A DNA stretch of 64,000 nt from a virus: IMG/VR virus record IMGVR_UViG_3300011972_000003, positions 1 to 64,000 of that record, one strand, 5' to 3'. The notes beneath the pieces are model-generated. The model was given only the letters and a program-made list of their open reading frames with translations, was not told the origin of the DNA and ran no database searches. This document shows positions 13,134-64,000 of this stretch, one piece after another. Made by a program: the position numbers and the translations under genes. The stretch's first letter is position 1, and every line of letters starts with the position of its first letter.

Positions 13134-14445
13134 GAAGAATAATAAAGTAGTAACCGAGTCTATTGGAGATATAGTTTCATTCGGGTATACAGAGTTTGGG
13201 AAATACATTAATACATCAAGAGTGTTTCCTAGGCTTCTCGATGGACTTAAACCTTCCTATAGACGTGGTATTTATGCATCTTATTTAGGAGGAAAGGATT
13301 ATGCAAAGTCAGCTGAGGTTTTAGGTAATATGATGAAGTTCCACCCTCACTCTACAGATGGGACGTATGAATCACTGGCAAAGTTTACGCTCTGTGGTAT
13401 TTTAGAAGGAGAAGGGAGTTTTGGTAGAGCTGATATTCTAGGAGATTCTGATGGTCCAGCTGCTGCTCGTTATACCGCTATTAAAGTATCAAAGAAACTC
13501 AGAGCGATGATAGAGCCAGTGTTAGACCTCGTCCCATGGCAAGATAGTGAGGTGAATGGAAATATAAAAGAACCGTCATACCTTCCTACACCATTTCCGT
13601 TATCCTTCTTAGTTGATAGGGTTTCTGGATTAGGGATTGGAGTTTCAGCTATCTTACCAACGTTTTCTATGGAGAGTATGTATGAAGCTTATATAACTAA
13701 TGACCCTAAGAAGCTGAAGTATAGAACTAAGGGACTTAAGATTATAGCAAAAGATTCAGACTTAGATGCACTATGGAAAACAGGGAAAGGATATCTAACT
13801 TACCAGTATGCCAAAATAACAAAGGGAGATAGGGAAGTTCTTATAGAGGGTGACCCAAGTAGATTTCCTATTCAGTTAGATAAAGGTGGTAAGGGAGATG
13901 ACAAACTATTTATGCAGTATAGAGAAGAGGGAAGAATATTAATTGACAACCTCTCCGACAAAACAAAACCAGGACTTCTAAGAGTTTACCTTTCACCGGG
14001 AACTAGAGGAGTGGATATAGACTGGCTGCATAAATACCTAACAGAAAAAGCTACCCACAAGGAAACGTATATGATTAATGTTACTGATGGAGAGACTGTT
14101 AGAACTATAGGGATTAGAGAGTGGATAGATATAACTTACAATAATTACATAAACCTACTGAACTTAAACCGGGATAACAAATTAAAGAGCCTAGAGTTTA
14201 GTAAGAAAGTTTACCTAGCTATGCCTGAAGTGGTTAAAGTATTTCTAAAGGATACGAGTGTCACAAATGAGCAGCTGGCAAAGAAGACCAAAGTAGATTT
14301 AGAGATTATTAAAGTTATTATGTCTAAGCCTATAGGTACACTGAGAAAGACTGATTCAGAAGCTAAGATTAAAGAAATAGAAAAAGAAATAAAAGCACTG
14401 AAGAAGTTTAAAGCGGAAGAATTTATCAAAGAACACATATTTTAA
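13126..14445 (+). CDS. type II topoisomerase DNA breakage-reunion subunit (GyrA / T4 gp52-like)
   Basis: SRVFPRLLDGLKPSYRRGIY resembles RALPDVRDGLKPVHRRVLY. HPHSTDGTYESLAKFT...GSFGRADILGDSDGPAAARYTAIKVSK resembles [40 protein letters not shown], including the catalytic Tyr region. Confidence 0.7.
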   Translation: MAKKNNKVVTESIGDIVSFGYTEFGKYINTSRVFPRLLDGLKPSYRRGIYASYLGGKDYAKSAEVLGNMMKFHPHSTDGTYESLAKFTLCGILEGEGSFGRADILGDSDGPAAARYTAIKVSKKLRAMIEPVLDLVPWQDSEVNGNIKEPSYLPTPFPLSFLVDRVSGLGIGVSAILPTFSMESMYEAYITNDPKKLKYRTKGLKIIAKDSDLDALWKTGKGYLTYQYAKITKGDREVLIEGDPSRFPIQLDKGGKGDDKLFMQYREEGRILIDNLSDKTKPGLLRVYLSPGTRGVDIDWLHKYLTEKATHKETYMINVTDGETVRTIGIREWIDITYNNYINLLNLNRDNKLKSLEFSKKVYLAMPEVVKVFLKDTSVTNEQLAKKTKVDLEIIKVIMSKPIGTLRKTDSEAKIKEIEKEIKALKKFKAEEFIKEHIF

Positions 14446-24674: not shown

Positions 24675-24689
24675 ATTAAAGACAAAAAT

Positions 24690-24748
24690 AGGGAGCAGCC
24701 CGGGGTTAAATTTCCTCAGGTTGCTCCCTTTAACTTTATTTTTTTTTT
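24690..24748. terminator. bidirectional intrinsic terminator between convergent gene blocks
   Basis: Hairpin AGGGAGCAgcc-[loop]-ggTTGCTCCCT (24690..24729) followed by TTAACTTTATTTTTTTTTT. It sits between the last plus-strand gene (ends 24674) and the endolysin stop (24753). Confidence 0.5.
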
Positions 24749-24752
24749 CGCC

Positions 24753-26713: not shown

Positions 26714-27271
26714 CTAATCTCTTACTTCTTTAGATTCATTTTCCTCACATATATTCTTTACGTCTAATCCTGCAACTCCTATGACTAAACTACCAGCTTT
26801 TCGTTTCCACTTATAGGTTACCTTCCCCTCCATCTCGTCTGTAAAAATCATATAATCCCTGTCAGAGCTTAGGAGTAATTTATCGTGAGCCACATACTTC
26901 TTTGCTGCCTCTTCCCCAAAAAGGTCAACATCAGATTTGTCTATTACGTCTGTTACGCCATACTCATGCTCAAAAGATTTATTAACGTAGATGTAGTAAC
27001 CTTGTTTATCCTTAAGCCAGTAAGAAAAGGGTGAGTCCCAAGATGAAGATTCTAAGAGGGTTAATAGTTTCTCCTTCTCAGACATCTCTTCCCTTAGACG
27101 TTCTACCTTATTGTTGAGCTTAGTGATATCGTGTCGTTGCATATTGATGATGTTGATATACTCGTTACTCTTACTTTGTTTAGTCTGTATGAGGTATTTA
27201 AATATATAACCTAAGAGTATACCTCCCCCTCCCGTTATTAAAATATTCACTAAGTCCATTTCGTTATTCAT
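26714..27271 (-). CDS. membrane protein with N-terminal TMD and large C-terminal domain (holin candidate, T4 T-like topology)
   Basis: TM segment LVNILITGGGGILLGYIFKYLI at residues about 8–30. Located in the lysis cassette. Confidence 0.35.
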   Translation of the reverse strand: MNNEMDLVNILITGGGGILLGYIFKYLIQTKQSKSNEYINIINMQRHDITKLNNKVERLREEMSEKEKLLTLLESSSWDSPFSYWLKDKQGYYIYVNKSFEHEYGVTDVIDKSDVDLFGEEAAKKYVAHDKLLLSSDRDYMIFTDEMEGKVTYKWKRKAGSLVIGVAGLDVKNICEENESKEVRD

Positions 27272-27324
27272 ATTTGGTTAGACAGGAGAGAGATTTTTGT
27301 TCTCCCTCTCGCTGTGCTTGTTGT

Positions 27325-50885: not shown

Positions 50886-52628
50886 CTACTTTTTCTTTTT
50901 AGGCTTACTTACTGTTCCCTTCTTAGTTGGTTTCTTAGCTTTAGCGTTCTTATCTGTAGGCTTAGCTGCTTTCTTACTCTTACCTACAGGCTTTGGCTTA
51001 AATTTATCTTCAGTCTGTGGGTTTCCGTCCTTATCGTTAGTCTTTTTACGGAACTGTCTTGTGTATGCTTTAGATTGGTCGGACTCTTTTAATATAGATA
51101 CTACCTTGTCTTTGTTGAAATTAGTTATGAATCGGGTATTTAATTTATCTTTATCCCAGTGTCTTCCGTGTCCTTTACGCTGAATCTGCTCATAGAACTC
51201 ATCAGAACTTAATTGACCCACTATAGAGAATGTAACTGTCTTATTAATAGGAGAGTGAGATGATTCCCCTTCTAACCCTTCAGTCATATCTATTGGGTAT
51301 CCTATGTAAGCTTGATAGTATAACTCTTTTAAGTCCACATCAAGAAGCCATATCCCTATTATTGAGCAGCACTCTTTATAAGGTCTCACTCGGTTTTTGT
51401 AGAACATGAACTTTTTATACTTTGAGAGCCACGCCTTTACTGAATAAGTTGAATCCTCTACAAAGGTAGCCTCAAATCTCATATCTATCTTCTTGGTTGT
51501 AGGGATTGTAATTGAACTTCCCCCAAACATCTCCATTGAATCTGATAAGGTTTGTCCTGCATCTAATGACCAGTTTGTAATCGGAAGAACATCTATATCC
51601 CTCATCTCAAGTACTGGCACTCCTGTTCCCATTGGTTTTATCTGTACATCCCAAAGGTGAGTCGATGCAAGTTCCAATCTCCCTAGTCTTGATCTAAAAT
51701 AACCTTCGAATGGAGCTGGGTTGATTTCATTTATAGTAGCTTCTAATACTTTCTGGTTACTTGAATTAATACTATGCGCTACATCCTCATCATCAGTAAA
51801 AGGGTTATGGAATGTGTCAGTATCTTTGTTATACCCTAAAGCATCTACTGGAACCGGCGTATCGAAGTCTGTCTTTAAGTTAGAAGCATCAATTCCAGCC
51901 TGTTCTAGCATACTTTTATACTTGTCCACATTAGTTGCTGAGTTCCAAGTCGTACTGTTAGCTATCCCTGCTGATGGTTTCTTCTTAGGCATTTTAGGTC
52001 CACCATTCCAAGATTTTCCTTCTACTAAATTCTGTATTCCTTTTGATATCCCTAAAAACTCATCGGCAGTCTTATACGCACTGAGAAACTTGGGAGCAAA
52101 CTGAGCTAATAAATTCTGAGGTAAAAGTGATAGTATATTCCCTAGTCCCCATTTAGGATCATTCTCCCTTACTCTATCTAATATTTTTACTACATCTTTA
52201 AAGGCTGCACCTGAGATTAACATATTTTGAACCTCAGCAGCAACTCTAGCATCTCTTGTAGCTCTAATCCCATTGACTATCTGAACTACTTTATCTTTGT
52301 CATACTCAACATGTACTTTAGTTCTAGTGTCGATGTAAGGATTAAAGACTCCCACTATAGAGTTACCTACTGCATTCTCAAGTTTATTTAAAAAGTCTGA
52401 TATCTTACTATTCTTTAACACTTGATTTAGAGCCCTAAGAGTAGCCTTAACTTGAACCATGTCGGATTTAGTCCTTATCTGGTTAGGCAACATCTTTAAG
52501 GCCTGTGAAGCCCTCCCTATATCCCCAATGGTTCCACTAAGGTGTCTGAGAGGTGAAAGGAGCTTAGTTATAGTATCTTTTGCTCCACTATACCCCTTGC
52601 CTAATTGTAAATCACTAAGTAACGACAT
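50886..52628 (-). CDS. structural protein (580 aa) with Lys-rich C-terminal tail
   Basis: C-terminal KPKPVGKSKKAAKPTDKNAKAKKPTKKGTVSKPKKKK. Confidence 0.45.
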   Translation of the reverse strand: MSLLSDLQLGKGYSGAKDTITKLLSPLRHLSGTIGDIGRASQALKMLPNQIRTKSDMVQVKATLRALNQVLKNSKISDFLNKLENAVGNSIVGVFNPYIDTRTKVHVEYDKDKVVQIVNGIRATRDARVAAEVQNMLISGAAFKDVVKILDRVRENDPKWGLGNILSLLPQNLLAQFAPKFLSAYKTADEFLGISKGIQNLVEGKSWNGGPKMPKKKPSAGIANSTTWNSATNVDKYKSMLEQAGIDASNLKTDFDTPVPVDALGYNKDTDTFHNPFTDDEDVAHSINSSNQKVLEATINEINPAPFEGYFRSRLGRLELASTHLWDVQIKPMGTGVPVLEMRDIDVLPITNWSLDAGQTLSDSMEMFGGSSITIPTTKKIDMRFEATFVEDSTYSVKAWLSKYKKFMFYKNRVRPYKECCSIIGIWLLDVDLKELYYQAYIGYPIDMTEGLEGESSHSPINKTVTFSIVGQLSSDEFYEQIQRKGHGRHWDKDKLNTRFITNFNKDKVVSILKESDQSKAYTRQFRKKTNDKDGNPQTEDKFKPKPVGKSKKAAKPTDKNAKAKKPTKKGTVSKPKKKK

Positions 52629-52630
52629 AA

Positions 52631-53233
52631 TTATTTCCTGTTTTTGAATCCTCTAACTACCTTAACTGTTGGCGTATCTGTACCCTGCTCATTTGTCGGT
52701 AGTTCAAGTTTATCTTCTTTCTTTATTTCCTGCTCATTCATACTAGAGACGTGATCCTTTATTCCGATTAATCTATACTCAAAAATAACGTCCTCATAAG
52801 CTGTAACATCATTCACTATAAAGGAGTAAGTCTTTCCGAATCTATTAAAACTCACCTTATCCCCTAAATCAAGTATATTCTGGTTAAAGTAAATCATCAC
52901 CTCATCAGATTGGTTATTGTAGTATTTCTGAGCGTGTGACTTATTTATGATAAAGGTTTCTGTAAAAGTTTGCCATTCAGAATCCCTATCTAAATCATCA
53001 TGTGTAGCTACCTTTCCGTAAGTTTGGTTTATCATTTGGTCTCTGGAAGGAAGCTTTATTCTGTCTTTATTATCTTTATTTCTAAGTAAGCGTTCTACTG
53101 TGCAAAGAGTCCCGTAGAGTTTCATATAAAAAGGAAAGCTCTTGTACATTATCTTGAAGAACCTCCCTGTCATTTCATGGGCTCTATTTACAAAGTCATT
53201 ATTAACAACTGTCTCACTCATACTTTTATTCAT
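52631..53233 (-). CDS. hypothetical structural protein (200 aa)
   Basis: ORF preceded by the conserved upstream motif. Confidence 0.45.
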   Translation of the reverse strand: MNKSMSETVVNNDFVNRAHEMTGRFFKIMYKSFPFYMKLYGTLCTVERLLRNKDNKDRIKLPSRDQMINQTYGKVATHDDLDRDSEWQTFTETFIINKSHAQKYYNNQSDEVMIYFNQNILDLGDKVSFNRFGKTYSFIVNDVTAYEDVIFEYRLIGIKDHVSSMNEQEIKKEDKLELPTNEQGTDTPTVKVVRGFKNRK

Positions 53234-53246
53234 TTATGGGTTGGCC

Positions 53247-53271
53247 GAGGGAGATCTATTCAAAATCCCCC
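53247..53271 (-). promoter_or_regulatory. conserved late-gene upstream hairpin/promoter-like motif (instance 1)
   Basis: GAGGGAGATCTATTCAAAATCCCCC lies 13 nt upstream of the start of the 200-aa gene. Confidence 0.35.
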
Positions 53272-53319
53272 TGCGACACGAACTTAATAAAAAATCACAA
53301 CAATTATGAAAGCAACATG

Positions 53320-55212
53320 TTAGTTTGACGTTAGTGTAGATAATGGAAGCATCTTGGACACCACCGTAATCTTTCTAAGCGCTCTACCAACATATATATT
53401 TACTTCTACCATTAATTCACCATCACCCCAAACATTATTAGATTTATCCACTACAACGTCATATTTCTCAGGTGCATAAGTCTGATTCATAATAGTAGTT
53501 TTCATGTAGTAATCGATAGTAGCCTTAACGTCAAAAGCTGTACTCTCAACATCGTATCTACCTAAGAATTGCTCAAGAAGGAAGTCTAAATCCCAACCTA
53601 TTCTATTAGCCATTCTTACAATCCATTCTTCATTAAACAAACTCTGACCACCCTCTCCAGTTCTACAGTCATTAATTGAAGATATACCTCTAAACTTGTC
53701 GAACTTGATGGTGTTTATTTGTCCAGCTAAGAATTTCTCTCTGTCAGTCTTCTTAAATTGAGCTACTAATTCACCCACAGATACTTGACCATTAACGATT
53801 CCAAATACCGGTGCGAACTCTGAATTAGCTGACTTATTTCTTACAATAGCTTCAACATACTCAATACAAGGAGAAAGCTCTAGTGTCTTAATCCCAAAGT
53901 TGTATTTCATGTATGGAGCTAGTTTATAAGAGTTGAATGAATTAGATTGCTTGTACTCATTTACTATAGCATCTACTGTTGAATGGTTTGTAGTTTTAAC
54001 TGAGTGTAGTGCAAGTGCTTTAAGTTCTGCTGCTACTGAGTTCATTACTGACTGTAGGCCAACCTCACCTTCACCTGCATCCCATACAAAGTCAATTCTA
54101 TACCCTTCATCATACTCCAATAAATCTAGAATAGCTCTCTGTACTTTTGCACTTCTCTCTCCATCTACTGGTGCTGCATTTCCTCCTAATTTTTCGAACT
54201 CTGCTCTAACTGGGTCTGAAAATGCGAAAACTCTATCTGGATTACTTACAAGGACTTTCTCATCAGTCTGTGGATCTCCTTCTAGTTTTAGTCCGTTACT
54301 TATTGCGCTTACCCCTACTGGAGCTGGAGCAAGTTTAACCTCAGTTCTCGTTACATCTGCAATCGTGAACTCTGAACCTGCGTCTAACTGAGAATTAACT
54401 TTTAGAATGAATCTCTTGTTAGCCGGGTCTATAGAGTTAATTAAGAATTTAAGAGGTGTAGATGTAGTATTTGTAATTGCTGAACCTACCGGGGCTGTAG
54501 CCTTAAGTAACAATCTATATTTATCATCAATCGTCAACTTAGGTGCTGTAGGTAGTCCATCTGTATTAGCAAGACCTAGTGTAGTTTTAATGAATTCGTT
54601 TACATTTGCATGGTACTTATAAGCTAGGTAAAGAGTTAGTTCATTATTCTCTCCATACTTATATCCGTAAAGGTAAACTGATGAATCCTCTAATCCGTTA
54701 ATTAATTTGCTAATCTTCTCTTGGAAATCTAAACTTTGAACTGATACTGCTCCTACTTTAACTGCAGCTATCGTATCTAGTATTCTATCTTTTCCATCTA
54801 CTAAATAAGACTTCCCGTTATCTCCAACAGCAATAGAACCTTTATAATCTACTACCATTTTATTTCCGAAAAGCTTTGTATAACTGAACGCTCCTTGGTC
54901 TGCATTATACATTTTAGTTACAGCTTCCTCCATAGAACTACCTACTCTTGTTACTAATACTGAACTGTGAGCAAGCATAGCGTAAATATGGAAGAATGTA
55001 CTATCTAAATCTGAAACCAAATAATTCGCTCCATCTGGTCTATATTTTCTGAGGAGTTCTCTTTGGTTGTTTATCATTGTTATGCCGTAAGGGCCGTGGT
55101 CAGAAACTAAGGGAGCAGCTACTACTATCTTCCCGTTCTGATATCCTGATGTATCTGTAGTTGTCGCAGCTTGAATTCTGGACTCTACAAACGGTTCATA
55201 TATCTGACTCAT
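53320..55212 (-). CDS. major virion protein (630 aa; capsid or second sheath-like protein)
   Basis: Size and position. The N-terminus is loosely sheath-like. No decisive motif. Confidence 0.45.
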   Translation of the reverse strand: MSQIYEPFVESRIQAATTTDTSGYQNGKIVVAAPLVSDHGPYGITMINNQRELLRKYRPDGANYLVSDLDSTFFHIYAMLAHSSVLVTRVGSSMEEAVTKMYNADQGAFSYTKLFGNKMVVDYKGSIAVGDNGKSYLVDGKDRILDTIAAVKVGAVSVQSLDFQEKISKLINGLEDSSVYLYGYKYGENNELTLYLAYKYHANVNEFIKTTLGLANTDGLPTAPKLTIDDKYRLLLKATAPVGSAITNTTSTPLKFLINSIDPANKRFILKVNSQLDAGSEFTIADVTRTEVKLAPAPVGVSAISNGLKLEGDPQTDEKVLVSNPDRVFAFSDPVRAEFEKLGGNAAPVDGERSAKVQRAILDLLEYDEGYRIDFVWDAGEGEVGLQSVMNSVAAELKALALHSVKTTNHSTVDAIVNEYKQSNSFNSYKLAPYMKYNFGIKTLELSPCIEYVEAIVRNKSANSEFAPVFGIVNGQVSVGELVAQFKKTDREKFLAGQINTIKFDKFRGISSINDCRTGEGGQSLFNEEWIVRMANRIGWDLDFLLEQFLGRYDVESTAFDVKATIDYYMKTTIMNQTYAPEKYDVVVDKSNNVWGDGELMVEVNIYVGRALRKITVVSKMLPLSTLTSN

Positions 55213-55215
55213 ATT

Positions 55216-56391
55216 TTATTTAATTTCTTTTATCTCTGGTTGTTTACTCAATATTTTAACAATTTGGTCATAATCCTTATACTTTAAACTGAAGACATTG
55301 TCACTATCTACAGCATTCATTTCTTTTAGGTTTACTTCCTTGAATTTTACTAGATTGGTTATTTTCGAGATTACTACATCAGAGGGTTTGCAGTTATCCA
55401 TTATAATATCAAAGTGGACTCTACAATTAAAGTATAGCTGATGATAGTAATTATTCTCCTCGTCAGTAACCGCACTTTTATCTCCTAATTGACCTGATAT
55501 ATCTTCCCAAACTATAGCTACCTTAAATGGATTGTTGTTATAGTCAAATACATTAATAGAAGTCAAGTTGGAAATAATCTCTAAGTTTCTATACCGGTTC
55601 TTTATATCCATAGCTTTAGAGAGGGTTGTTGATTTTAATTTCCACTCTATAGATAAGTTTGCATCTGTGTGTCGCTTTAGTAGTGGAGTAACTCTTTTAG
55701 CTATAGGGTTATAATCGGCATTTTGAATAGAGTAACTTAGTACGTCAGGAACCTCTACTAATTCATCCTGGTCATCTAACTTTAAGGACTCGAAACCATG
55801 ATCATATAATTGCTCTAGAACTACCTTTTTAACTTGATACATAACTAAAGGCTCATCTATAACATAATTAGTATAGGTGTCTTTGTACTTAAATGCTCTA
55901 TGGTTTGGGAAGATATAATTAAGCCTCCTTCTACCCATTAAGCAGTTTGTTATATTAGCGAGTACTACGTCATCTTCCCCTTCAGTTATCTCTAAGAAAG
56001 GTATTGATTTAAGTAGTGTTATATAATCTTTGTACTCTATATTCTGGTTTATAAATAAGTCACACCTCTCTTCATTATAAAGGGCATAACTCTTATCCAA
56101 ATCGGTAAAAATAGTCTGGTTTAATATATACTCATTAACTACCAGCTTCTTTATATTTAGGTTGTTTATTTTATTTTGTGGATTATAGGTTGAAAGTAAG
56201 TCAGACTCTACAAGATCCTCTTCTGTAATCACTTCAAAAGGTAACTCAGTGTTTTTAGCTCCTTTAGTGAAGAAAATAACTAGTACTGAATTTGGTATAT
56301 CCTCTTCAACTTGAGTGACACCCGCCTCTATAAACTTAATGTAAGAGAGTGAAGTGGTTATCTTTAATCCGTTTACTACTAGTGTGTTCAT
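55216..56391 (-). CDS. head-region protein (391 aa)
   Basis: ORF preceded by the conserved upstream motif. Confidence 0.45.
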   Translation of the reverse strand: MNTLVVNGLKITTSLSYIKFIEAGVTQVEEDIPNSVLVIFFTKGAKNTELPFEVITEEDLVESDLLSTYNPQNKINNLNIKKLVVNEYILNQTIFTDLDKSYALYNEERCDLFINQNIEYKDYITLLKSIPFLEITEGEDDVVLANITNCLMGRRRLNYIFPNHRAFKYKDTYTNYVIDEPLVMYQVKKVVLEQLYDHGFESLKLDDQDELVEVPDVLSYSIQNADYNPIAKRVTPLLKRHTDANLSIEWKLKSTTLSKAMDIKNRYRNLEIISNLTSINVFDYNNNPFKVAIVWEDISGQLGDKSAVTDEENNYYHQLYFNCRVHFDIIMDNCKPSDVVISKITNLVKFKEVNLKEMNAVDSDNVFSLKYKDYDQIVKILSKQPEIKEIK

Positions 56392-56407
56392 ATATTCATT
56401 TTCATTT

Positions 56408-56433
56408 AGGGAGGGCTATCTTTCAAACCTCTC
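56408..56433 (-). promoter_or_regulatory. conserved late-gene upstream motif (instance 2)
   Basis: GGGAGGGCTATCTTTCAAACCTCTCC lies 17 nt upstream of the start of the 391-aa gene. Confidence 0.35.
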
Positions 56434-56448
56434 CACTTATATTTAAAA

Positions 56449-56880
56449 TCATGACCAGTCTTCGTCCGTGTAATTTGGTTGTTGAGTCTGGTGGTGTAAG
56501 TCAGTAATTCTAGAACCAGGGTGTTGTCTTTGGAAGAGTTGAGCATCTTGTATATAGTCAAATCTTCTGTGCCTCTCTAGTCCATTTTTAGGGTCAGAAT
56601 AAGTAACTTCAAATCTCTTGTTCTCAGTGGTTTTGCTTAATTGACTCCCTGCTTTTCCTCCTAATTTTCTACCTCCAATAAAACCACCTATTCCACCAAC
56701 TAAACCACCTGCTAATGCCCCTATCGCTTGACCTTTAAGAGATTTACCTCCTAATTGTCTTCCTATCGCCGCACCTGCACCAGCTCCAATCATTGCGCCA
56801 TAATTACCTCCTGTTTTTCTTCCGTAATATGCATGCTCTGATCTATATGCGTTAAATTTTTTTGTTATAATTATTCCCAT
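56449..56880 (-). CDS. glycine-zipper family protein (143 aa)
   Basis: N-terminus MGIIITKKF. GAMIGAGAGAAIG..ALAGGLVGGIGGFIGG repeats. Confidence 0.5.
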   Translation of the reverse strand: MGIIITKKFNAYRSEHAYYGRKTGGNYGAMIGAGAGAAIGRQLGGKSLKGQAIGALAGGLVGGIGGFIGGRKLGGKAGSQLSKTTENKRFEVTYSDPKNGLERHRRFDYIQDAQLFQRQHPGSRITDLHHQTQQPNYTDEDWS

Positions 56881-56886
56881 GAGTTT

Positions 56887-57132
56887 TTAATCTATTTGTT
56901 CAACGACTACATTACTATAACCCACCCTTTGAGATAATTCATTTGCTACCTCGTGGGCTCTCTTTCGTGTTCTAAAAAGCATATGGTAGACGTAATTATG
57001 ACCTCTCTTATCGAACCTTATTTGAAATCTATATCTATCTGGTTCTTCTTTTCTTGTGAGTCTGTCCAAAATCTTACTAGCCGCTACGCCAATTAGAATA
57101 GCTTTCAAATCACTACTCATAGGATATATCAA
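56887..57132 (-). CDS. hypothetical protein (81 aa)
   Basis: ORF. Confidence 0.4.
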   Translation of the reverse strand: MIYPMSSDLKAILIGVAASKILDRLTRKEEPDRYRFQIRFDKRGHNYVYHMLFRTRKRAHEVANELSQRVGYSNVVVEQID

Positions 57133-57631
57133 CTATACTTGCCTTATTATAACCTGGTGAAAGAGTAAAGTCAAATCCTAAAATATCCTTAATTCTAACA
57201 GCTATATCATTTTTCCATACTGCTGAGATAACTACTGATACTGGAAGCTGAACCCCTCTTCTAAGTAGTCGTGTAAGTGTTTTAATTAACTCCTTACTTT
57301 TCCCTTCATACTCCTCTGGGTCATCCATTACTTCTGCTGTAGCGTGGACATATTCAATCCCATCCGAGTGTCTTCTAATAAAGTAATCGTCTATGATGTG
57401 AGTGATGTTTCCAGAGTATAATAGTTCATCTCCTTCTCCAACAACTCCTCCTGTAGATTCTTTTCTGGATTGGTTTCTATTTAAATGTGTACTCCCTCCG
57501 TAAAAGTTTCTATTCTGTTTTCTTTCTTTATATCTCGGTGTGTTCTGATACTCTAGAAAACTCTGCTTAGGTATAATAGAACCATCTGCTGCAGGAGTAT
57601 CTAGAGGAAACAATCTTACTTCTATTTTCAT
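57113..57631 (-). CDS. hypothetical protein (172 aa)
   Basis: ORF. Confidence 0.4.
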   Translation of the reverse strand: MKIEVRLFPLDTPAADGSIIPKQSFLEYQNTPRYKERKQNRNFYGGSTHLNRNQSRKESTGGVVGEGDELLYSGNITHIIDDYFIRRHSDGIEYVHATAEVMDDPEEYEGKSKELIKTLTRLLRRGVQLPVSVVISAVWKNDIAVRIKDILGFDFTLSPGYNKASIVDISYE

Positions 57632-57632
57632 C

Positions 57633-58100
57633 TTAATTATTGCTTTTTATGGCGTTTAGTATTATTTCAGGTACTCTTTGGTAATCTTTTTGGAAGAACT
57701 TATTTACACTCTTAAGAACTCTGGTACCATCCTCTGACTTACTTAAATAATCCCAATAACCTGCTGATTTAAATTCACTAATCCAGTTATCCGGAGTAAG
57801 TCCATGTAGAGCTGTTTCTGAATCTCCTAACCACCATGAATCTTTTACTAAACTAATTTTCCCTGACTCTGAGTTTACTTTATATAATAGGCTTACGTTC
57901 AAAATATTATCAAACATCAGTAGCGCCTTAACGGCTGTAACGTCTCCAATAGTCTTCTGAATTATCTTAAAAACCCCATAATCAAGAATAACCTCACTGA
58001 ACGCTTCTGATACTGATTGAGGTTCATTTGGTGTATTTTTAAGTTCAGCTACACTATCCCAAAGTAAGCCGAACTGTCTAGTATCTATAATTAATCCCAT
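57633..58100 (-). CDS. MGLIIxTRQFGL-leader family protein (155 aa)
   Basis: N-terminus MGLIIDTRQFGLLW shared with 60041..60331. The C-terminus is homologous to the out-of-frame segment 59782..60039. Confidence 0.5.
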   Translation of the reverse strand: MGLIIDTRQFGLLWDSVAELKNTPNEPQSVSEAFSEVILDYGVFKIIQKTIGDVTAVKALLMFDNILNVSLLYKVNSESGKISLVKDSWWLGDSETALHGLTPDNWISEFKSAGYWDYLSKSEDGTRVLKSVNKFFQKDYQRVPEIILNAIKSNN

Positions 58101-58102
58101 GT

Positions 58103-58633
58103 TTATTTTCGTTTTCCAGGTTTTACAATTAATAGACCTCTAACAAATTTTCCAGCCTGATAATTATCTAGATCGTCTCCCATTTCTCTTAAAGTTCCAA
58201 TTGCGTAGGTATTATCAGAAATGTAAGTATCTTTGTGGAATTTTTTAGGTAGTATATTTCTAGTTTCTGCATTAACAACCCCCTCTCTCATTATTGTTGG
58301 AGTGTTTAAAAGAAGTCGATGTTTCATTACCTTAGCTTCACTCCCTCCGTTAAGCCCTTCTAAAAATGCTAATGTTGGCGCTACTTTCTTGAGTTTATCA
58401 TTTAATTGGCTAAGTCGCTTATTATGAAGTACATCGCCTTTTAATACCTTATCTCTGTGTCTTCCTTCATGTACAACTACGAATGGAATTTTAGCTCCCT
58501 TCTTAGTTAAGTATACATTTCCGTCATAATCCACCAGATCACTATTATTTGATTTTATATATTGGTAATCCCTTAGTTTGTCAGCTAATTCCTTATCTTC
58601 TAAGTTCTCCCAACTAGTTAATTTCTTAAACAT
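58103..58633 (-). CDS. hypothetical protein (176 aa)
   Basis: ORF. Confidence 0.45.
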   Translation of the reverse strand: MFKKLTSWENLEDKELADKLRDYQYIKSNNSDLVDYDGNVYLTKKGAKIPFVVVHEGRHRDKVLKGDVLHNKRLSQLNDKLKKVAPTLAFLEGLNGGSEAKVMKHRLLLNTPTIMREGVVNAETRNILPKKFHKDTYISDNTYAIGTLREMGDDLDNYQAGKFVRGLLIVKPGKRK

Positions 58634-59297
58634 AAATCTTACCGTGTGTTAGTCCCATATAAAACTGATCTAAACTTGTCTGTATCATTGAACTAGCCTC
58701 ATCTATACCATTAAACATTTGAACAGGTACGTCTGGGTATTCGAAGTTCTTCCTTAGTTGAGATATGAATTGTAAAGTCTCCATAAGGCAAGCATCTACA
58801 AACTTACTTACATGTCTTTCCTCTATAAAACCAATACAACTCTTAGGATCTAATTCTCCAGTTGGTTGTAAATAGTTAACATACATCGGTCTCATATAGG
58901 TAGCATTCATTAGGTATTCTCCCTCTGAAACTCCTGATAAGAAACCATCCTGATATATCCAATTACGAGATGAACCTAAAATACCATTAAGTGACCATAC
59001 TCTAGTCGGTATAAGTTCAACCTCTGAAATGCACATAGTATTCGGATTCCTAGCATATGTGTTAAAAGTGTTTATAAATTTATGTGGGTCGTTATTAATT
59101 TTTATTTTATTTAATCTGATGAGAGGTACTTGATAATGCCACTTCTCTAAAGCTACTGAATACAGCTCCACCCTCTGCTCATCTGGATTCTGGGTTCCTA
59201 CGATAGACAATAACTCATCCACAGAAGGTAGCATTAGAAGAGATGATCTCAAGTCTATTTTTCTCTTAAGTTCCGATAATAGTAGTACTTCTCCCAT
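58626..59297 (-). CDS. hypothetical protein (223 aa)
   Basis: ORF. Confidence 0.45.
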   Translation of the reverse strand: MGEVLLLSELKRKIDLRSSLLMLPSVDELLSIVGTQNPDEQRVELYSVALEKWHYQVPLIRLNKIKINNDPHKFINTFNTYARNPNTMCISEVELIPTRVWSLNGILGSSRNWIYQDGFLSGVSEGEYLMNATYMRPMYVNYLQPTGELDPKSCIGFIEERHVSKFVDACLMETLQFISQLRKNFEYPDVPVQMFNGIDEASSMIQTSLDQFYMGLTHGKIYV

Positions 59298-59301
59298 TTC
59301 T

Positions 59302-59763
59302 TTATTTCTTGTTTTTATTATTTCCTATAAGTAATCCCTTTTTATTAATCCTCTCATACTTCCATTTATACATAGTAGCCTCAAAGTCTTTTGTTCTGTA
59401 CTTATATTCTTTATCGTGATAGCCTGTTACTTTGATGGAATATTGATAATTTAACTTGACTGGCTCTAAGCTCCAAACCTCATCTGTTATTTCGCAATCT
59501 GGAACTTCTTCTGTAGTAGGTTTGTATATGTTAGCAGTTACCTTATATACATTATAGACTCTACCTAAGATATTCGCACTCATAGCAGCTAAACATCCCA
59601 TTATTGAAGTTGAAAGGCATACTCTCTTAGTTACATTATCTTCATATCCCCGCTCTGTTAGAAAGTTTTTAGGGACTCTTGGAATTAAAGTTTGTCCATC
59701 TAAATCCTCAGTTGATATGAAAAATACTTCCTTTCTAGTTGTAGGTCTTTTCACTTTATTCAT
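59302..59763 (-). CDS. hypothetical protein (153 aa)
   Basis: ORF. The conserved hairpin motif lies 9 nt upstream. Confidence 0.45.
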   Translation of the reverse strand: MNKVKRPTTRKEVFFISTEDLDGQTLIPRVPKNFLTERGYEDNVTKRVCLSTSIMGCLAAMSANILGRVYNVYKVTANIYKPTTEEVPDCEITDEVWSLEPVKLNYQYSIKVTGYHDKEYKYRTKDFEATMYKWKYERINKKGLLIGNNKNKK

Positions 59764-59772
59764 TTTAATTTA

Positions 59773-59799
59773 GGAGGAGATTTATTGTAGTCCCCTCTC
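59773..59799 (-). promoter_or_regulatory. conserved late-gene upstream motif (instance 3, inverted orientation)
   Basis: GGAGGAGATTTATTGTAGTCCCCTCTC lies 9 nt upstream of the start of the 153-aa gene. On the plus strand it resembles the reverse complement of the other instances. Confidence 0.3.
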
Positions 59800-60331
59800 T
59801 TGTTTGTATTGTTTGATTGTGTTTATTAAGAATATAGGCAAAGTTTTATTATAATCTTGCTTGAAAAACTTATCCATATCCTTTAAATCTTGCTTTCCGT
59901 ATTTATCTCCGTTTAGTGTCTGGTAGAGCGTAGTGTATTCATCGTACTCATTTGTAGCGTAACTATCTTCCTCTTCCTTCAGTCTATTTATCCAGTTTTG
60001 AGGAGTTACATTTTCTACAATATCTCCTTCAGCCCCAGCTTTAATACTTGCACTCTGTAACCCTGTATTGATAAGTTGAAGGGTTGATTAAGTAAGTAAC
60101 CCTAATATCAGTATAGTCAAATCCAGTTACTGTAGCTAAAACTATCTCATCGGCATTATATCTCTCCGCTATAACTCTATTTGTTGGACGTGGACCCTTA
60201 ATTGATTTAATCTTCTCGTCAAAATAAGTGTTAAGTAATCCTAATATATTGTGTGGCTTATCTTCTTTAGGCTTACTTGGAGAAAACCATGACATAAGCC
60301 CAAACTGTCTCGTACTAATTATTAATCCCAT
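59782..60331 (-). pseudogene. frameshifted paralogue of the 57633..58100 gene (pseudogene, sequencing error or recoding site)
   Basis: The 96-aa ORF 60041..60331 has the N-terminus MGLIISTRQFGL. In a different frame, 60087..59782 encodes ..VTPQNWINRLKEEEDSY..DMDKFFKQDYNKTLPIFLINTIKQY. This matches the C-terminus LTPDNWISEFKSAGYWDY..VNKFFQKDYQRVPEIILNAIKSNN of the intact paralogue. Confidence 0.45.
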
Positions 60332-60346
60332 TTTTGTTTTTTTTTG

Positions 60347-60682
60347 TTATAACTGTAGAGGTAGCTCATAATCATCAGGAGTCACTACAAAAGTTTTTCT
60401 CCCTTGACTATTTAAATACTCAGCTTGTTCCTCGGCTTCGGCTTTTGTATCAAATTCTTCTACTTCAGGTTTACCAGTTGCACTATCCGTTACAGTATAT
60501 GCTCCACCCAAAGCTTTAATCCATCCAATAGCTTCTTTGTGACTCTCCTTAACTGTTGTTCTAGGTTTCTTTAAGTATCCACCTACTCCACCTAGTATTG
60601 CACCGGCTACCATCCCTTTCTCGAAATGAGGTTCAACTCTGTATCTGGCTTTTGAAATTGCTGCATGAGCTAAGGATCCCAA
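60347..60682 (-). CDS. glycine-zipper family protein (111 aa from a TTG start; frame open to 60748)
   Basis: KGMVAGAILGGVGGYLKKP and FVVTPDDYE match the middle module of 60847..61797. No ATG is present, and the upstream in-frame extension also encodes GALGGAALG. Confidence 0.45.
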   Translation of the reverse strand: MGSLAHAAISKARYRVEPHFEKGMVAGAILGGVGGYLKKPRTTVKESHKEAIGWIKALGGAYTVTDSATGKPEVEEFDTKAEAEEQAEYLNSQGRKTFVVTPDDYELPLQL

Positions 60683-60807
60683 AGCAGCTCCACCTAAAGC
60701 TCCTTGTATTGAGTTTATTATTCGGTAGTCTTTTTCTTTGTTGGAGAATCAGTCTAGTAAATGTTCCTTACTTCTTATATTCATTATCTCTTATTCTTTT
60801 ATGAATA

Positions 60808-60830
60808 GGGAGACTATATTTCAAATCTCC
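60808..60830 (-). promoter_or_regulatory. conserved late-gene upstream motif (instance 4)
   Basis: GGGAGACTATATTTCAAATCTCC has a 5-bp stem (GGAGA/TCTCC) and a 12-nt loop. It lies between the stop of the 316-aa gene and the start of the 111-aa gene. Confidence 0.35.
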
Positions 60831-60846
60831 AATTTATTATTACATT

Positions 60847-61797
60847 CTAAGTAAGCATAGTTCTATTACTAGTTCTAGCTGCAATCTTAGCACCTTCTTT
60901 TAGTCCGTAGTTTCTACCGAGTTTTGAACCTCCATAAATACCAGCTGCACCTCCTAAAAGTCCTCCAATCGTTTGAAAAGATTTAACTCTCTTTGCGTAA
61001 GCCTCCTGTGCATCTCTTTCACTTGCTTCAGGGTGTTTAGATAAGTACTCTTTAATATAGGTGTCCTTGTTTTTCAATTTAGCAACTCCTTTTCCAGCTA
61101 AATATCCAACTCCAGTTCCAACAGCGGCTCCTCCAATAGAACCAACTCCTGCACCAAAATTCCCATAATGTTGCTTAACTGCCTTCATTCCAGCAACTCT
61201 AGCGTTTCTGGCTACTTTCGCTAACTCAGCATCAGTTTTAGGAGCAGTCCCACCCTTACTTTTATATTCATCAACATAAGCTTTTGCACCTTTACCAAAT
61301 ACTTCTAAATTTTTCTTATGTCCTAGGTCGATCAATCCAAACTGTCTATTACTAGCACCGCTAAAATCCTCAGGAGCCACTATAAAAGCTTTAATTCCTT
61401 TCAATTTAAAATCTGCAGCATCTTGTTTAGCTTCTTGTAAATTTCTAAAGCCTTTGTGGTAAACTTCTCCAGATGGAAGTGAAGCTATTACAAAGTACTG
61501 TCCCATTCCAGACAAAACTCCAGCTCCTATATTTCGGTTATCCTCTGCACTCACTTTAGGTTTAATCATGTACCCACCTAAAGCACCTAAAGCACCTCCA
61601 ATCAACATACCTTTTTTCGCGGATCTATTGATTCCATAATTAGCACCTGCGCCTAGTCCAGCACCAAGTAGCCCCATAGCAACTGCTTGACCAATTCTAT
61701 TATTCCCCTCAGTAGGAGTCGCTTTGTTTAACAGCCAATTTCTAGCATCGTCTTGGCTTTTTATTATTACAACTTTATCCATTATTTTTTTTTTCAT
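60847..61797 (-). CDS. glycine-zipper family protein, mosaic of two modules (316 aa)
   Basis: The middle part (KGMLIGGALGALGGYMIKP..AFIVAPEDFSG) resembles 60347..60682. The C-terminal part (KEYLSKHPEASERDAQEAYAKR..GGLLGGAAGIYGG) resembles the C-terminus of 62337..62714. Confidence 0.5.
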   Translation of the reverse strand: MKKKIMDKVVIIKSQDDARNWLLNKATPTEGNNRIGQAVAMGLLGAGLGAGANYGINRSAKKGMLIGGALGALGGYMIKPKVSAEDNRNIGAGVLSGMGQYFVIASLPSGEVYHKGFRNLQEAKQDAADFKLKGIKAFIVAPEDFSGASNRQFGLIDLGHKKNLEVFGKGAKAYVDEYKSKGGTAPKTDAELAKVARNARVAGMKAVKQHYGNFGAGVGSIGGAAVGTGVGYLAGKGVAKLKNKDTYIKEYLSKHPEASERDAQEAYAKRVKSFQTIGGLLGGAAGIYGGSKLGRNYGLKEGAKIAARTSNRTMLT

Positions 61798-61806
61798 TTT
61801 CAGTTA

Positions 61807-61829
61807 GGAGAGCTATATTTCAAGCCCTC
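61807..61829 (-). promoter_or_regulatory. conserved late-gene upstream motif (instance 5)
   Basis: GGAGAGCTATATTTCAAGCCCTC lies 10 nt upstream of the start of the 316-aa gene. Confidence 0.35.
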
Positions 61830-61836
61830 ACTTATT

Positions 61837-62313
61837 TTATCCGTTGATACCTGGGTGGTAGTTTTGAGGATTACTAGACGGCGCAGGAAGAGCAGCAGTT
61901 GCATTACCCCCTTTACCTCTTTGGAAACCTCTATATCCAGCACCTACGCCACCAGCTACAGCTCCTAAAGCTCCACCGATAGCTAATCTCTTTCTTTTAA
62001 TCTTGTTGTACTCAGCATCAATCTTTTCATCTGACCAATCTGGGTGAGCATCTCTAAGTCTACCTTTCAAACCTTTAAGTGTGATTCCTGCAATTCCTGC
62101 ACCTAGACCACCACCAAGCAAAGCTCCTGCAGCTCCTAATGCATATTTACCTGCTCCCGCTTTTTTACCTTCAGCTTTGTCGTATAGCCAGCTTTCGGCT
62201 TGTTTAGGGTATTTAGCTGCTTTTCCACCCCACTCTTTTACTTTATTCTTTGTTTTAGACCATCTGCTTTCTTTTTCTTCAGCGAATAGTCTTGTTTTAA
62301 ATGTTAATCCCAT
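61837..62313 (-). CDS. MGLxFxTRLF-leader glycine-zipper protein (158 aa)
   Basis: MGLTFKTRLFA. LKGLKGRLRDAHPDWSDEKIDAEYNKIKRKRLAIGGALGAVAGG is about 80% identical to the equivalent segment of 62726..63169. Confidence 0.5.
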   Translation of the reverse strand: MGLTFKTRLFAEEKESRWSKTKNKVKEWGGKAAKYPKQAESWLYDKAEGKKAGAGKYALGAAGALLGGGLGAGIAGITLKGLKGRLRDAHPDWSDEKIDAEYNKIKRKRLAIGGALGAVAGGVGAGYRGFQRGKGGNATAALPAPSSNPQNYHPGING

Positions 62314-62336
62314 TTTGTTAATTCTTTATTTTATTT

Positions 62337-62714
62337 TTAAAGGATAGTCTTCTCTAAATATCGCTTAGTTTTTACGATCTTATCTCCAGTCCTACTCCCT
62401 AAATTATAACCCTTAACTCCCCCAACTAATGCTCCAACTATAGTCCCAGTCTTATTATATATCGACCTCCTATTTTTGTAAGCTTTGTATGCATCGTAAC
62501 TATTGGATTCTGGATTTTTTAGTAGGTATTCTGAAATAAAGTCTTCCTCAGATGGAGTTAGTATTTTACCTATAAGTCTTCCACCTAAGTAACCGACTCC
62601 AGACCCAACTAATCCACCACTTATTAATCCCACGTTTTTAGATCCTTTAAGTATTTGGGAGTCTCCTGGTATATATTTACTTGAGAATAATTTGGTTCTA
62701 AATACTAACCCCAT
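62337..62714 (-). CDS. MGLxFxTKLF-leader glycine-zipper protein (125 aa)
   Basis: MGLVFRTKLFS. GGLVGSGVGYLGG. SEYLLKNPESNSYDAYKAYKNR module. Confidence 0.5.
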   Translation of the reverse strand: MGLVFRTKLFSSKYIPGDSQILKGSKNVGLISGGLVGSGVGYLGGRLIGKILTPSEEDFISEYLLKNPESNSYDAYKAYKNRRSIYNKTGTIVGALVGGVKGYNLGSRTGDKIVKTKRYLEKTIL

Positions 62715-62725
62715 ATTGTTATTTA

Positions 62726-63169
62726 TTACTTTTTCTTATTATAGAAGTCCATTGCATTTGGTGTATAAGTCTTCTTGTATTCTCTACCTTTCATATAACC
62801 TAGTCCACCTCCTGCTACAGCCCCTAGAGCCGCACCAATAGCTAATCTTTTCTTCTTAATTTTGTCGTATTCAGCTTGTACTTTTTCATCAGACCATTGA
62901 GGATTAGCTTCTCTCAATCTACCTTTAAGACCTCTAAGTGAAATTCCAGCAACACCTGCTCCAAGTCCACCTCCAGCTAAAGCACCAATACCAGTAAGAC
63001 CTACAAGTCCTCCATGCTTTTGTTTTTCCTCTAGAGATTTATATAAGCTTCTTCCTTTTGCATTTGCTGAAGCTGAAACTTTAGCTCCTTTGATTTTAGC
63101 TTTTTCTACTAATCTTCCTACTGCTCCTTTTTTCTTAGCGAACAGTCTAGTTTTGAAATATAATGACAT
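62726..63169 (-). CDS. MxLxFKTRLF-leader glycine-zipper protein (147 aa)
   Basis: MSLYFKTRLFA. Paralogue of 61837..62313. Confidence 0.5.
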   Translation of the reverse strand: MSLYFKTRLFAKKKGAVGRLVEKAKIKGAKVSASANAKGRSLYKSLEEKQKHGGLVGLTGIGALAGGGLGAGVAGISLRGLKGRLREANPQWSDEKVQAEYDKIKKKRLAIGAALGAVAGGGLGYMKGREYKKTYTPNAMDFYNKKK

Positions 63170-63200: not shown

Positions 63201-64000
63201 TTATAATTCTTCATCTAATTCTCTCATTCGATTGTAAGCAACTCTAGCTAAATCTTTTGTAGAGAATCCTTTGTACTCCGGCTGTTTCTTAAGGAGCTTA
63301 GTTAAATACGCAATCTTCTCAACCTCAGTCATATTTTTGTACTTAGCTAATTCTGTTTCTTTAGTTAGTATTGAAGTAAGCCAACCTCCAGCAGTAGCAG
63401 CTAAAGCGCCAGTTAAATAAGTTGAGTATGCGGTTGCGGTTTTATTTCTATACCCCTTAAGATCCTTACCTCCAGCATTTTTGTATAACTTATATCCTCG
63501 AATAGTTGCATCAGCTTCGTTATAAAGAGTTGGAGCATTAGCTAATAAAAACCCTCCACCTCCTCGAAGTCTATTAAACCACGAAGATTTCTTTCCTAAT
63601 ATTTTATCCTTAGCTAGAGTATTTCCTGCATGTATAGCGTTTCCAAAAGCAAGGGTATTAGATCCAATAAGGACAGGCATGTTTCTAGATCTTTGCATCA
63701 ATCTTCCAAAACTATTACCTCCATTCTCGATATTTCTGTGACCCATTTCATGAGCTAAAACCTTACTATTGTTTAACCCTTTAATATCGGTCATAAAAAC
63801 TTTATCCACATCTGGTCGGTAGTTTGGACCTATTATATTATCACTGCCTCCATAATTTCCCTTACCGAGCTCATTCATTAAGTTTTTGTAAGTTTGAGTA
63901 TCTGTTCTATTTACTCGATCGCCTAATAGCTTTTTATTTTCAAAATTAACAGCTTCCTTGGCTAACTTTTCCGCGATACTGCCTATTATTAAATTCTTGG
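63201..64000 (-). CDS. HExxH zinc-metallopeptidase-like protein, N-terminally truncated by the window edge
   Basis: VLAHEMGHRN. The frame stays open upstream of the listed Met to position 64000. The C-terminal region shares the YLTKLLKKQPEY module with the glycine-zipper family. Confidence 0.5.
   Translation of the reverse strand, partial: KNLIIGSIAEKLAKEAVNFENKKLLGDRVNRTDTQTYKNLMNELGKGNYGGSDNIIGPNYRPDVDKVFMTDIKGLNNSKVLAHEMGHRNIENGGNSFGRLMQRSRNMPVLIGSNTLAFGNAIHAGNTLAKDKILGKKSSWFNRLRGGGGFLLANAPTLYNEADATIRGYKLYKNAGGKDLKGYRNKTATAYSTYLTGALAATAGGWLTSILTKETELAKYKNMTEVEKIAYLTKLLKKQPEYKGFSTKDLARVAYNRMRELDEEL

Follow-up and report, generated by a model that had tools for sequence, protein, structure and literature searches.

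What signal is carried by the short hairpin-like motif that recurs just upstream of several late genes between positions 53,234 and 61,836 of the virus record IMGVR_UViG_3300011972_000003? The record belongs to an uncultured phage of ~185 kb that has been assembled many times at ~99% protein identity, and the window analysed here comprises its positions 1 to 64,000. A preliminary description of this DNA listed five hairpins and proposed that they are promoters of the phage-encoded RNA polymerase, RNA processing or stability sites, or translational operators. The results presented here reveal that the hairpin, which had been taken for the whole element, is followed on its 3' side by a conserved box of ~18 nucleotides (nt) with ~23 bits of information. 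The two-part element has a fixed anatomy and lies on the sense strand between genes; its stems and box are under purifying selection, the ATG in its box is non-coding, and junctions at which strains differ fall at its copies. The proposed list of roles still holds the likely answer, apart from the hairpin promoter recognised by a CTATNTTTCAAA loop. The element may combine a stop signal for one late transcript with a start signal for the next.

All genes in positions 24753-63878 are on the minus strand, and the element must therefore be read as the reverse complement of the strand presented. The five sequences first reported are present: GGGAGACTATATTTCAAATCTCC is exact at 60808-60830, and variants lie at ~61806, 56408, 53247 and 59772. 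The GGAGA/TCTCC-type stem is also real, but it was read on the wrong strand; the sense sequence is GGAGA-TTTGAAATATAG-TCTCC (GGAGA-UUUGAAAUAUAG-UCUCC as RNA). The copy at 59773 had been called inverted. Its purine arm, its pyrimidine arm and its downstream box have the same polarity as those of the other copies, and the loop alone differs. A sixth copy in the window (27266-27313) and two copies upstream of the window had been missed. As originally stated, the copies lie just upstream of late or structural genes: every one is on the sense strand, intergenic, within the structural module and right before a start codon.

Variants of the hairpin and box were collected from ~60 related loci. The box is AT-rich, with the consensus yCC-TAA-n-T-r-w-AAATGAAT, and begins 0-8 nt past the base of the hairpin, which adjoins it directly in most copies. 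Among 22 aligned variants, C at -10, A at -2 and the sequence ATGAA are invariant; the ATG is preceded by A in 18 of the 22 (AATG) and by T in the other 4 (TATG). A scan of the window with the box matrix returned six sites, all on the minus strand, five of them at 17.9-27.4 bits and a degenerate one at 14.6 bits. The same scan found no comparably strong box elsewhere in the window, and none in the polymerase and replication module. The best score in 1.07 Mb of unrelated viral DNA was 18.1 bits.

The six copies in the window, all on the minus strand, are called E61, E60, E59, E56, E53 and E27, and the A of their box ATG is at 61797, 60798, 59763, 56399, 53233 and 27271, respectively. The E61 hairpin (61806-61832; sense AG-U-GAGGGCU / loop / AGCUCUC-CU) begins 8 nt past the stop codon of gene 61837-62313 and folds at -10.8 kcal/mol on the sense strand versus -6.1 on the antisense strand. 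Its box (61792-61809) is TCCTAACTGAAAATGAAA and scores 24.5 bits, with the box ATG at 61797-61795, and translation probably begins at ATGGAT (61782). The poly-A tract at 61783-61794 (minus strand) looks like a slippage-prone homopolymer in the 5' leader of gene 60847-61797. E60, the index copy of the preliminary description, has a hairpin at 60807-60833 (GGAGAUU / AGUCUCC; -8.4 kcal/mol sense versus -5.0 antisense) in which this strain carries U in place of the outer G. Its box (60793-60810, TCCCTATTCATAAAAGAAT, 14.6 bits) is the degenerate one, with ATG changed to AAG, and the real start is ATGAAT at 60785. Other strains have TAATTAAAAATGAAT as the E60 box, and the AAG variant is also found in strain L003. 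The E59 hairpin (59772-59800; AG-A-GAGGGGA / UCUCCUC-CU) has an unrelated loop, which contains the stop codon of a frameshifted upstream gene; its box (59758-59775, TCCTAAATTAAAATGAAT, 24.1 bits) stands before gene 59302-59763.

E56 comprises a hairpin at 56408-56437 (AG-U-GGAG(N)GG / CCCUCC-CU; -10.9 kcal/mol sense versus -8.1 antisense), with a second bulge whose base is A, C or U depending on the strain, and the highest-scoring box (56394-56411, CCCTAAATGAAAATGAAT, 27.4 bits). The gene itself starts at ATGAAC (56391), in a different frame from the box ATG. The E53 hairpin (53247-53276; CG-C-AGGGGGA / UCUCCCU-CG; -15.2 to -15.4 kcal/mol) is downstream of a gene for a protein of 630 amino acids (aa) and ranks first in local hairpin stability in the 39-kb minus-strand module. 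Its box (53228-53245) is GCCAACCCATAAATGAAT at 19.0 bits, and the downstream gene probably starts at ATGAGT at 53221. E27 follows a 1426-aa tail-fibre-like gene; its hairpin (27284-27313; AG-C-GAGAGGGA / UCUCUCUC-CU; -11.6 to -13.5 kcal/mol) ranks second in stability, and its box (27266-27283, GTCTAACCAAATATGAAT, 17.9 bits) stands before gene 26714-27271. The two further copies lie within 20 kb upstream of the window, with boxes of 22.5-23.4 bits, one before a 552-aa gene and the other, with a UUCG-capped stem of ~11-12 base pairs (bp), before a terminase-like gene. A plus-strand hairpin at 6346-6370 was left out of the family because it has no box and falls within a plausible small open reading frame (ORF).

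The plan of the hairpin is fixed. Outer A-U and G-C pairs are followed by a bulge of one nucleotide on the 5' side and then by 5-9 inner pairs; the 5' arm consists of purines only and the 3' arm of pyrimidines only. The bulged base is U, C or A and differs even within one site. Stems are 7-12 bp long including the outer pairs, loops are 4-13 nt, and the hairpins of the window copies are found 8-48 nt past stop codons. The sense strand folds at -8.4 to -15.2 kcal/mol with z-scores of -3.0 to -4.4, and it folds better than the antisense strand by 2.8-7.5 kcal/mol at five of the six sites. When the 32-nt hairpins of the 39-kb module are ranked by stability, E53 and E27 take the first two places, and E56 and E61 come within the top eleven. 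Between sites the arms differ by transitions only, namely those that turn G-C into A-U pairs, and at inner positions 2-5 the intermediate G·U pairs also occur; the G·U pairs are on the sense strand only, and the comparison of arms between sites found no A·C mismatches. Since MAFFT alignments are not structure-aware, pairing was anchored at the hairpin base by script. By this measure 86.9% of positions pair, versus 80.9% in shuffles (none of 500 reaches the observed value) and 39-70% with a slid partner, a control that is weak with homopurine and homopyrimidine arms. Four pairs are changed on both sides, and it is on this comparison between sites that the covariation rests.

Because the hairpin folds better on the sense strand and has its G·U pairs there, the sequences suggest that it functions as RNA, in the transcript of the upstream gene or in one that reads through, and not as a DNA hairpin promoter. 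The upstream flank of the hairpin is not conserved, and the gene that ends 3-48 nt before it is not the same from strain to strain. It follows that the hairpin lies 3' of the preceding gene and that the conserved unit starts at the hairpin base. This strain-differing flank also rules out a promoter in front of the hairpin, which would have made the hairpin a 5'-terminal stabiliser. No U-tract follows any copy, as the preliminary description had noted, and the copies are thus not canonical terminators (a terminator scan reports 0 of 6 sites). Rfam covariance models gave no match in the whole window at the gathering threshold and none in 52500-62500 at E<=1.

The loop is the least conserved part of the element. 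Among strains with ~99% protein identity, nucleotide diversity is 0.17-0.37 in the loops (including indels), 0.02-0.07 in the stems and 0.07-0.12 at third codon positions, which indicates that the stems are under purifying selection and the loops are not. Other members of the family have unrelated loops, including ACAAAAA, UUCG, TTTAT (UUUAU), CTACAATAAA and CUACAAUAAA. The hairpin with a CTATNTTTCAAA loop does not hold up as a recognised signal, given loops that are hypervariable in near-identical strains and unrelated elsewhere in the family. It is correct that the motif is non-random. An exact CTATNTTTCAA occurs three times versus 0.47 expected (1 of 100 shuffles reaches three), and all three matches are between genes with inverted repeats on both sides. 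With one mismatch allowed, the loop core has 10 matches versus 13.2 expected, which is not above chance, and a scan of IMG/VR with a degenerate loop pattern gave only chance matches in unrelated contigs. The three loops with TTGAAANATAG are all downstream of paralogous glycine-zipper genes or recombine with each other, and their likeness is therefore attributable to shared ancestry.

The sequences of the strains indicate that translation does not start at the box ATG, which is non-coding. A usable start codon is found 2-20 nt past the box in every copy; the distance of 9-17 nt to a start codon given previously had been taken to the box ATG. Strains differ in the poly-A spacer of E61, which has 9, 10 or at least 17 A, and the 9-A form puts a TAA in frame. 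The E53 spacer is AAAAGT, GAAAT or GAAAAT. In-frame stops past the box ATG occur in strains L003 and L004, in the latter as a TGA in E53. Before the terminase-like gene the spacer is free in sequence and frame, while TAAATGAAT is invariant. In the relative L183, two paralogous small genes start at an ATG 8 nt past the box ATG, and in two strains the box ATG is naturally replaced by AAG. Gene callers have been misled by the invariant box ATG, and several starts are probably annotated 8-15 nt too far upstream.

A Shine-Dalgarno (SD) sequence and a convincing -35/-10 pair were looked for at the elements and were not found. One sigma-70 candidate, which pairs TTGAAA of the loop with GAAAAT of the box at a spacing of 16-17 nt in E56 and E61, was rejected because it fails at the other sites and the scan behind it is below its chance level. 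The sigma-70 scan gave 52 matches versus 58.6 in shuffled sequence, with E56 and E61 only 9-of-12 matches.

The element is also present in relatives at 42-60% protein identity, scored here with the box matrix trained on this species only. In L023, where the neighbouring 638-aa protein is 51% identical, a full element (23.5 bits, -13.7 kcal/mol) lies at the homologous position after the 630-aa gene. L187, with a terminase 50% identical, has an element before a 392-aa gene (20.9 bits, -10.0 kcal/mol). In L188, with a terminase 42% identical, the box scores 15.7 bits and the hairpin is weak. L022 (35%) has ordinary hairpin and T-run terminators instead of the element.

The genes of the window are laid out in a plus-strand module (436-24674) and a minus-strand module (24753-63878), and the copies of the element are in the latter. 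The plus module encodes type II topoisomerase subunits and RNA polymerase beta' (2690-5812; PF00623, E 4.5e-18) and beta (6492-8735; PF00562, E 5.2e-18). On these domain matches the phage has its own multisubunit RNA polymerase, in agreement with the preliminary description; the best protein-level phage relative of beta' is only ~23% identical. The minus module has tail-fibre and transglycosylase matches, and a terminase-like gene lies just upstream of the window (L162 7800-9707), with relatives that carry TerL nuclease or intein domains. These matches make it reasonable to call the minus module late or structural. Intergenic DNA accounts for only ~2% of its 39 kb. An SD-like sequence precedes 3 of 69 genes, and the stretches before start codons are A-rich; the host can therefore be inferred to be one that does not rely on SD pairing, such as a member of the Bacteroidota. 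Between the convergent modules, at 24675-24752, lies a bidirectional terminator. It is a canonical hairpin, GGGAGCAGCC...GGTTGCTCCC, flanked by an A-run and a T-run, and its presence shows that this genome makes use of ordinary U-tract terminators as well.

We favour, with a probability of about 0.42, the view that the hairpin terminates, attenuates or protects the upstream transcript and that the box is a promoter or start signal for the phage polymerase, a function inferred for an element whose anatomy is observed. Each copy would then be an intercistronic two-part cassette of ~45-55 nt between late genes. In the transcript of the upstream gene, the hairpin may act as a U-tract-less terminator or attenuator for the phage polymerase, as a protector of the 3' end, or as both. 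The box would be a sequence-specific initiation signal for the downstream transcription unit, with RNA synthesis or the mature 5' end beginning inside or just past the invariant ATG. The real start codon would follow 2-20 nt later on a short A-rich leader, and the box ATG would never be translated. The ~45 nt common to all copies could serve as linkers for homologous recombination, by which small gene cassettes are swapped between strains.

Several considerations argue for this view. At ~23 bits, the box is too specific for a generic preference of ribosomes or nucleases. An ATG that is tolerated in any frame before real starts is likely absent from the translated RNA, which places the 5' end within or after it, made there either by initiation or by cleavage. 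A terminator joined to a promoter is favoured because such cassettes explain very similar elements in T4-type phages (PMC2839356, PMC4122927), because phage phiKZ, which has its own multisubunit polymerase, uses a hairpin plus TTAT terminator and a TATG late promoter (PMC10914365, PMC7598289), and because the variable gap of 0-8 nt suggests two separable signals. A more specific version, in which the box is the promoter of an uncharacterised multisubunit polymerase that initiates in (A/T)ATG by phiKZ logic, the hairpin is that polymerase's own terminator and the cassette shuffles genes, is tentative and rather doubtful in all its parts together.

A number of points weigh against a stop-and-restart cassette. 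The box resembles no characterised promoter, and the combination TTGAAA-N16/17-GAAAAT works at three sites only, which is not above chance. A U-tract terminator is used at the end of the module (24675-24752); the polymerase active in this region may therefore require a U-tract, and the internal U-less hairpins would then be weak terminators. Within single sites, RNAalifold finds one-sided, pair-preserving changes only and no double compensatory ones. The 26-kb stretch from 27.3 to 53.2 kb has no element; with the box as sole late promoter, all of it would have to form one operon. The hairpin base adjoins the box in most copies, so that the two could be recognised as one RNA unit. An AT-rich box of 18 nt beside a hairpin fits an endoribonuclease site equally well.

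That last point leads to the closest competitor, a live if unlikely one, in which an endoribonuclease of host or phage cuts the AU-rich box of a polycistronic RNA and leaves a protective 3' hairpin upstream and a leader without a decoy AUG downstream. Intercistronic sites are processed in T7 and T4, and RNase E prefers AU-rich single strands beside stem-loops. Such a site would account for a hairpin that is a sense-strand RNA structure with an AU-rich box at its 3' base in most copies, and for an invariant AUG in any frame, if the AUG is cut off the translated RNA. The lack of canonical terminators inside the module fits the long primary transcripts that processing presupposes. However, stems of 5-12 bp are too short for RNase III, and ~23 bits over 18 nt is far above the specificity of RNase E or RNase Y. 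Cleavage would call for a dedicated nuclease, and the analysis identified no such enzyme. That the gap between hairpin and box varies over 0-8 nt (E27, E53 and the copy before the terminase-like gene) also counts against processing. Translation provides a second live alternative, considerably less probable than processing. Here the box would be an SD-independent start site that the hairpin keeps open or helps by docking on the ribosome platform; ribosomes that load there would read on in frame, or stop and reinitiate at the real start. Otherwise the bulged hairpin would be a translational operator bound by a phage protein. A bulged hairpin of conserved plan is typical of protein-binding RNA operators, the distance from hairpin base to AUG is fixed (9-10 nt), C is at -10 in 22 of 22 variants and AUG-AAU is invariant. 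With SD-like sequences before 3 of 69 genes, an A-rich context must drive initiation, and in some copies tiny upstream ORFs overlap or adjoin the true start, such as MNI* with an ATGA overlap at E56 and MNKK* in L012. Yet the box AUG often opens an out-of-frame ORF into the real gene, which would hinder translation of that gene; frame and spacer length vary among strains, two strains have AAG for AUG, and ~35 of the 41 called genes of the module do without the element.

The remaining two readings are unlikely. The form given in the preliminary description, a structured promoter with a CTATNTTTCAAA loop extruded from DNA in the manner of the N4 virion polymerase, is the least probable of all. 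The phage does have its own polymerase, and TTGAAANATAG recurs in three loops (3 exact versus 0.47 expected), a likeness for which shared ancestry suffices. Hypervariable loops in near-identical strains, and unrelated ones in the family and in relatives, argue against it. So does the template strand, on which the G·U pairs become C·A mismatches and the antisense folds are weaker. N4 promoter hairpins have 3-nt loops, unlike the loops of 4-13 nt found here. Only slightly better placed is a purely selfish or neutral dispersed repeat, either a recombination linker or a miniature mobile element with no role in expression. The family is dispersed, it is concentrated in a hyperplastic region and strain indel junctions fall at its members, all as expected of such a repeat. 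A selfish element would not be expected to keep so strict an orientation and placement (sense, intergenic, before a start codon), to have stems and a box under purifying selection while its loops drift, or to persist at the homologous position in L023 (51%) and at 42-50% terminase identity.

The nearest known parallel to a stop-and-restart cassette is the PeSL cassette of T4-type phages, which combines a promoter with a G-rich/C-rich stem-loop terminator and mediates cassette shuffling (PMC2839356, PMC4122927). Both are small composite intergenic elements that are repeated many times. Both have a G-rich/C-rich stem-loop with G·T pairs and an AT-rich conserved signal just before the start codon, and both mark hyperplastic regions of small ORFan genes, with strain indel or replacement junctions inside the elements. 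The internal-protein loci of T-even phages have analogous elements, and the cassettes here encode small proteins with a common N-terminal motif. PeSL differs in its strong early promoter of sigma-70 type (-35/-10) and its SD sequence, both used with the host polymerase; the elements described here have neither and are found in the late structural module of a phage with its own multisubunit polymerase. They also have a fixed bulged plan and an invariant non-coding ATG, and they are known from sequence alone. By analogy, the element works like PeSL but is not a member of the PeSL family, because it is without a sigma-70 promoter and an SD sequence and sits in a late module.

Phage phiKZ offers parallels to each half of the element. 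Its terminators share the motif BCCYCCCCHWWDGGGRRGGBYTTATKYYGT, a conserved hairpin followed by TTAT (PMC10914365). Like the elements here, they serve a phage with a non-canonical multisubunit polymerase, recur between genes and consist of a conserved homopurine/homopyrimidine hairpin with a short AT-rich tail and no long U-tract. The arms of the phiKZ terminator are C-rich on the 5' side and G-rich on the 3' side, whereas those of the hairpins here are G/A-rich and C/U-rich, respectively; the tail is TTAT in phiKZ versus TAAnTnnAAATGAAT here, and the phiKZ sites are mapped 3' ends, whereas the present elements were recognised by sequence. The terminator sequence of phiKZ (CCYCCCC-loop-GGGRRGG plus TTAT) is thus not found in the elements, which have the opposite arm polarity and another tail. 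The late promoter of phiKZ, 5'-T(-3)ATG(+1)-3', overlaps the transcription start site (PMC7598289). It resembles the box in having a minimal invariant (A/T)ATG core that does not serve as a start codon and is placed immediately before late genes in a phage with its own beta/beta' polymerase, and initiation of this kind would explain an ATG that is never translated. Unlike the phiKZ promoter, the ATG here is preceded mostly by A and lies within a much longer conserved box, and the polymerases are only ~23% identical. The likeness is a lead, by analogy.

Other classes are more distant. An intrinsic terminator likewise has a G+C-rich sense-strand hairpin a few nucleotides past a stop codon, but here UAA and an A-rich sequence (TAAnTnnAAATGAAT) take the place of the U-tract after the hairpin. 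The elements do not have the combination seen in N4-type DNA hairpin promoters, a 5-7-bp stem on the template strand with a 3-nt loop and conserved loop and flanks. Their 7-12-bp stems are shorter than the ~20 bp, about two helical turns, of T7-type RNase III sites. On sequence grounds, what is new here is the bulged hairpin with its box as a PeSL-like variant outside every Rfam family and the named classes compared. Bioinformatics fails to predict the late promoters of the multisubunit polymerases of jumbo phages (PMC7598289). The element provides a clonable candidate stop and start signal for such a polymerase, in a clade of uncultured and probably human-associated phages. If a stop-and-restart function is correct, the element would be an analogue of PeSL for a phage independent of host transcription. 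The shuffling of cassettes at regulatory linkers, known until now from T4-type phages, is extended by these elements to an unrelated lineage and to a late-gene region.

A hyperplastic region of small gene cassettes spans 57600-62400 (minus strand); the insertions, deletions and replacements that distinguish the strains have junctions there that fall at or beside elements. Strain L011 has the box and gene 59302 that follow E59 in the window joined to an E60-type hairpin, and the genes between are lost. L001, L003, L012 and L017 have an element directly before gene 58626, and other strains have extra cassettes after E61. Six small proteins encoded at 56449-63169 (minus strand) have the N-terminal motif MGL(I/V/T)(I/F)xT(R/K)xF in common, and most have glycine-zipper segments. 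Two pairs among them are clear paralogues (E 2.8e-17 and 4.2e-8), and the common motif recalls the capsid-targeting N-termini of T4 internal proteins. The product of gene 60847-61797 has weak Pfam Gly-zipper matches and is without the MGL motif.

Two genes of this region are damaged in the present strain. Gene 60347-60785 (minus strand) is broken by an in-frame TGA where L003 has AGA. Recoding of the stop codon was ruled out, as TGA is the stop in 5 of 69 genes and L003 has AGA at that position. The sequence at 59790-60331 (minus strand) is a frameshifted paralogue of gene 57633-58100; its N-terminal part is at 60041-60331, and the frame changes for the C-terminal part, which ends in the E59 loop. 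Mobile elements have also left traces. L017 has a 1.24-kb insertion (11904-13141) in the E53 gap (window 53234-53319); it codes on the opposite strand for a TnpB-like protein of 369 aa, and each of its ends has GCTTTCAT. Another transposase gene is upstream of the window (L158 6148-7332; phrog_506, E 5.9e-50).

The genes that flank the copies have almost no annotation in PHROGs and Pfam, and a profile search of the PDB gave no match. For the 630-aa protein, the AlphaFold model is unusable (pLDDT 34), and an exact-sequence look-up of the protein encoded at 63201-63878 found it not to be on record. A megablast of the region against cultured phages gave no match. The terminase-like copy of this phage is without an intein or Hint domain; such domains (PF14890, PF07591) occur in several distant terminase-like homologues (P0013, P0015-P0017, P0021 and P0025).

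The plus module contains intervening sequences of its own. A GyrB-like topoisomerase gene, in two parts at 10946-11311 and 11799-13133, carries a group I intron at 11274-11572 (plus strand; RF00028, 63.3 bits, E 5.7e-15), which the Rfam scan of the whole window at the gathering threshold had missed. The beta gene is split into 6492-8735 and 9023-9589 by a gap of 287 nt (8736-9022, plus strand), which has no Rfam match. The gap and the topoisomerase intron have the conserved blocks GACAATCAGCAGCC and GGTTCAACGACTATCGAAA in common, and the gap is probably a second intron.

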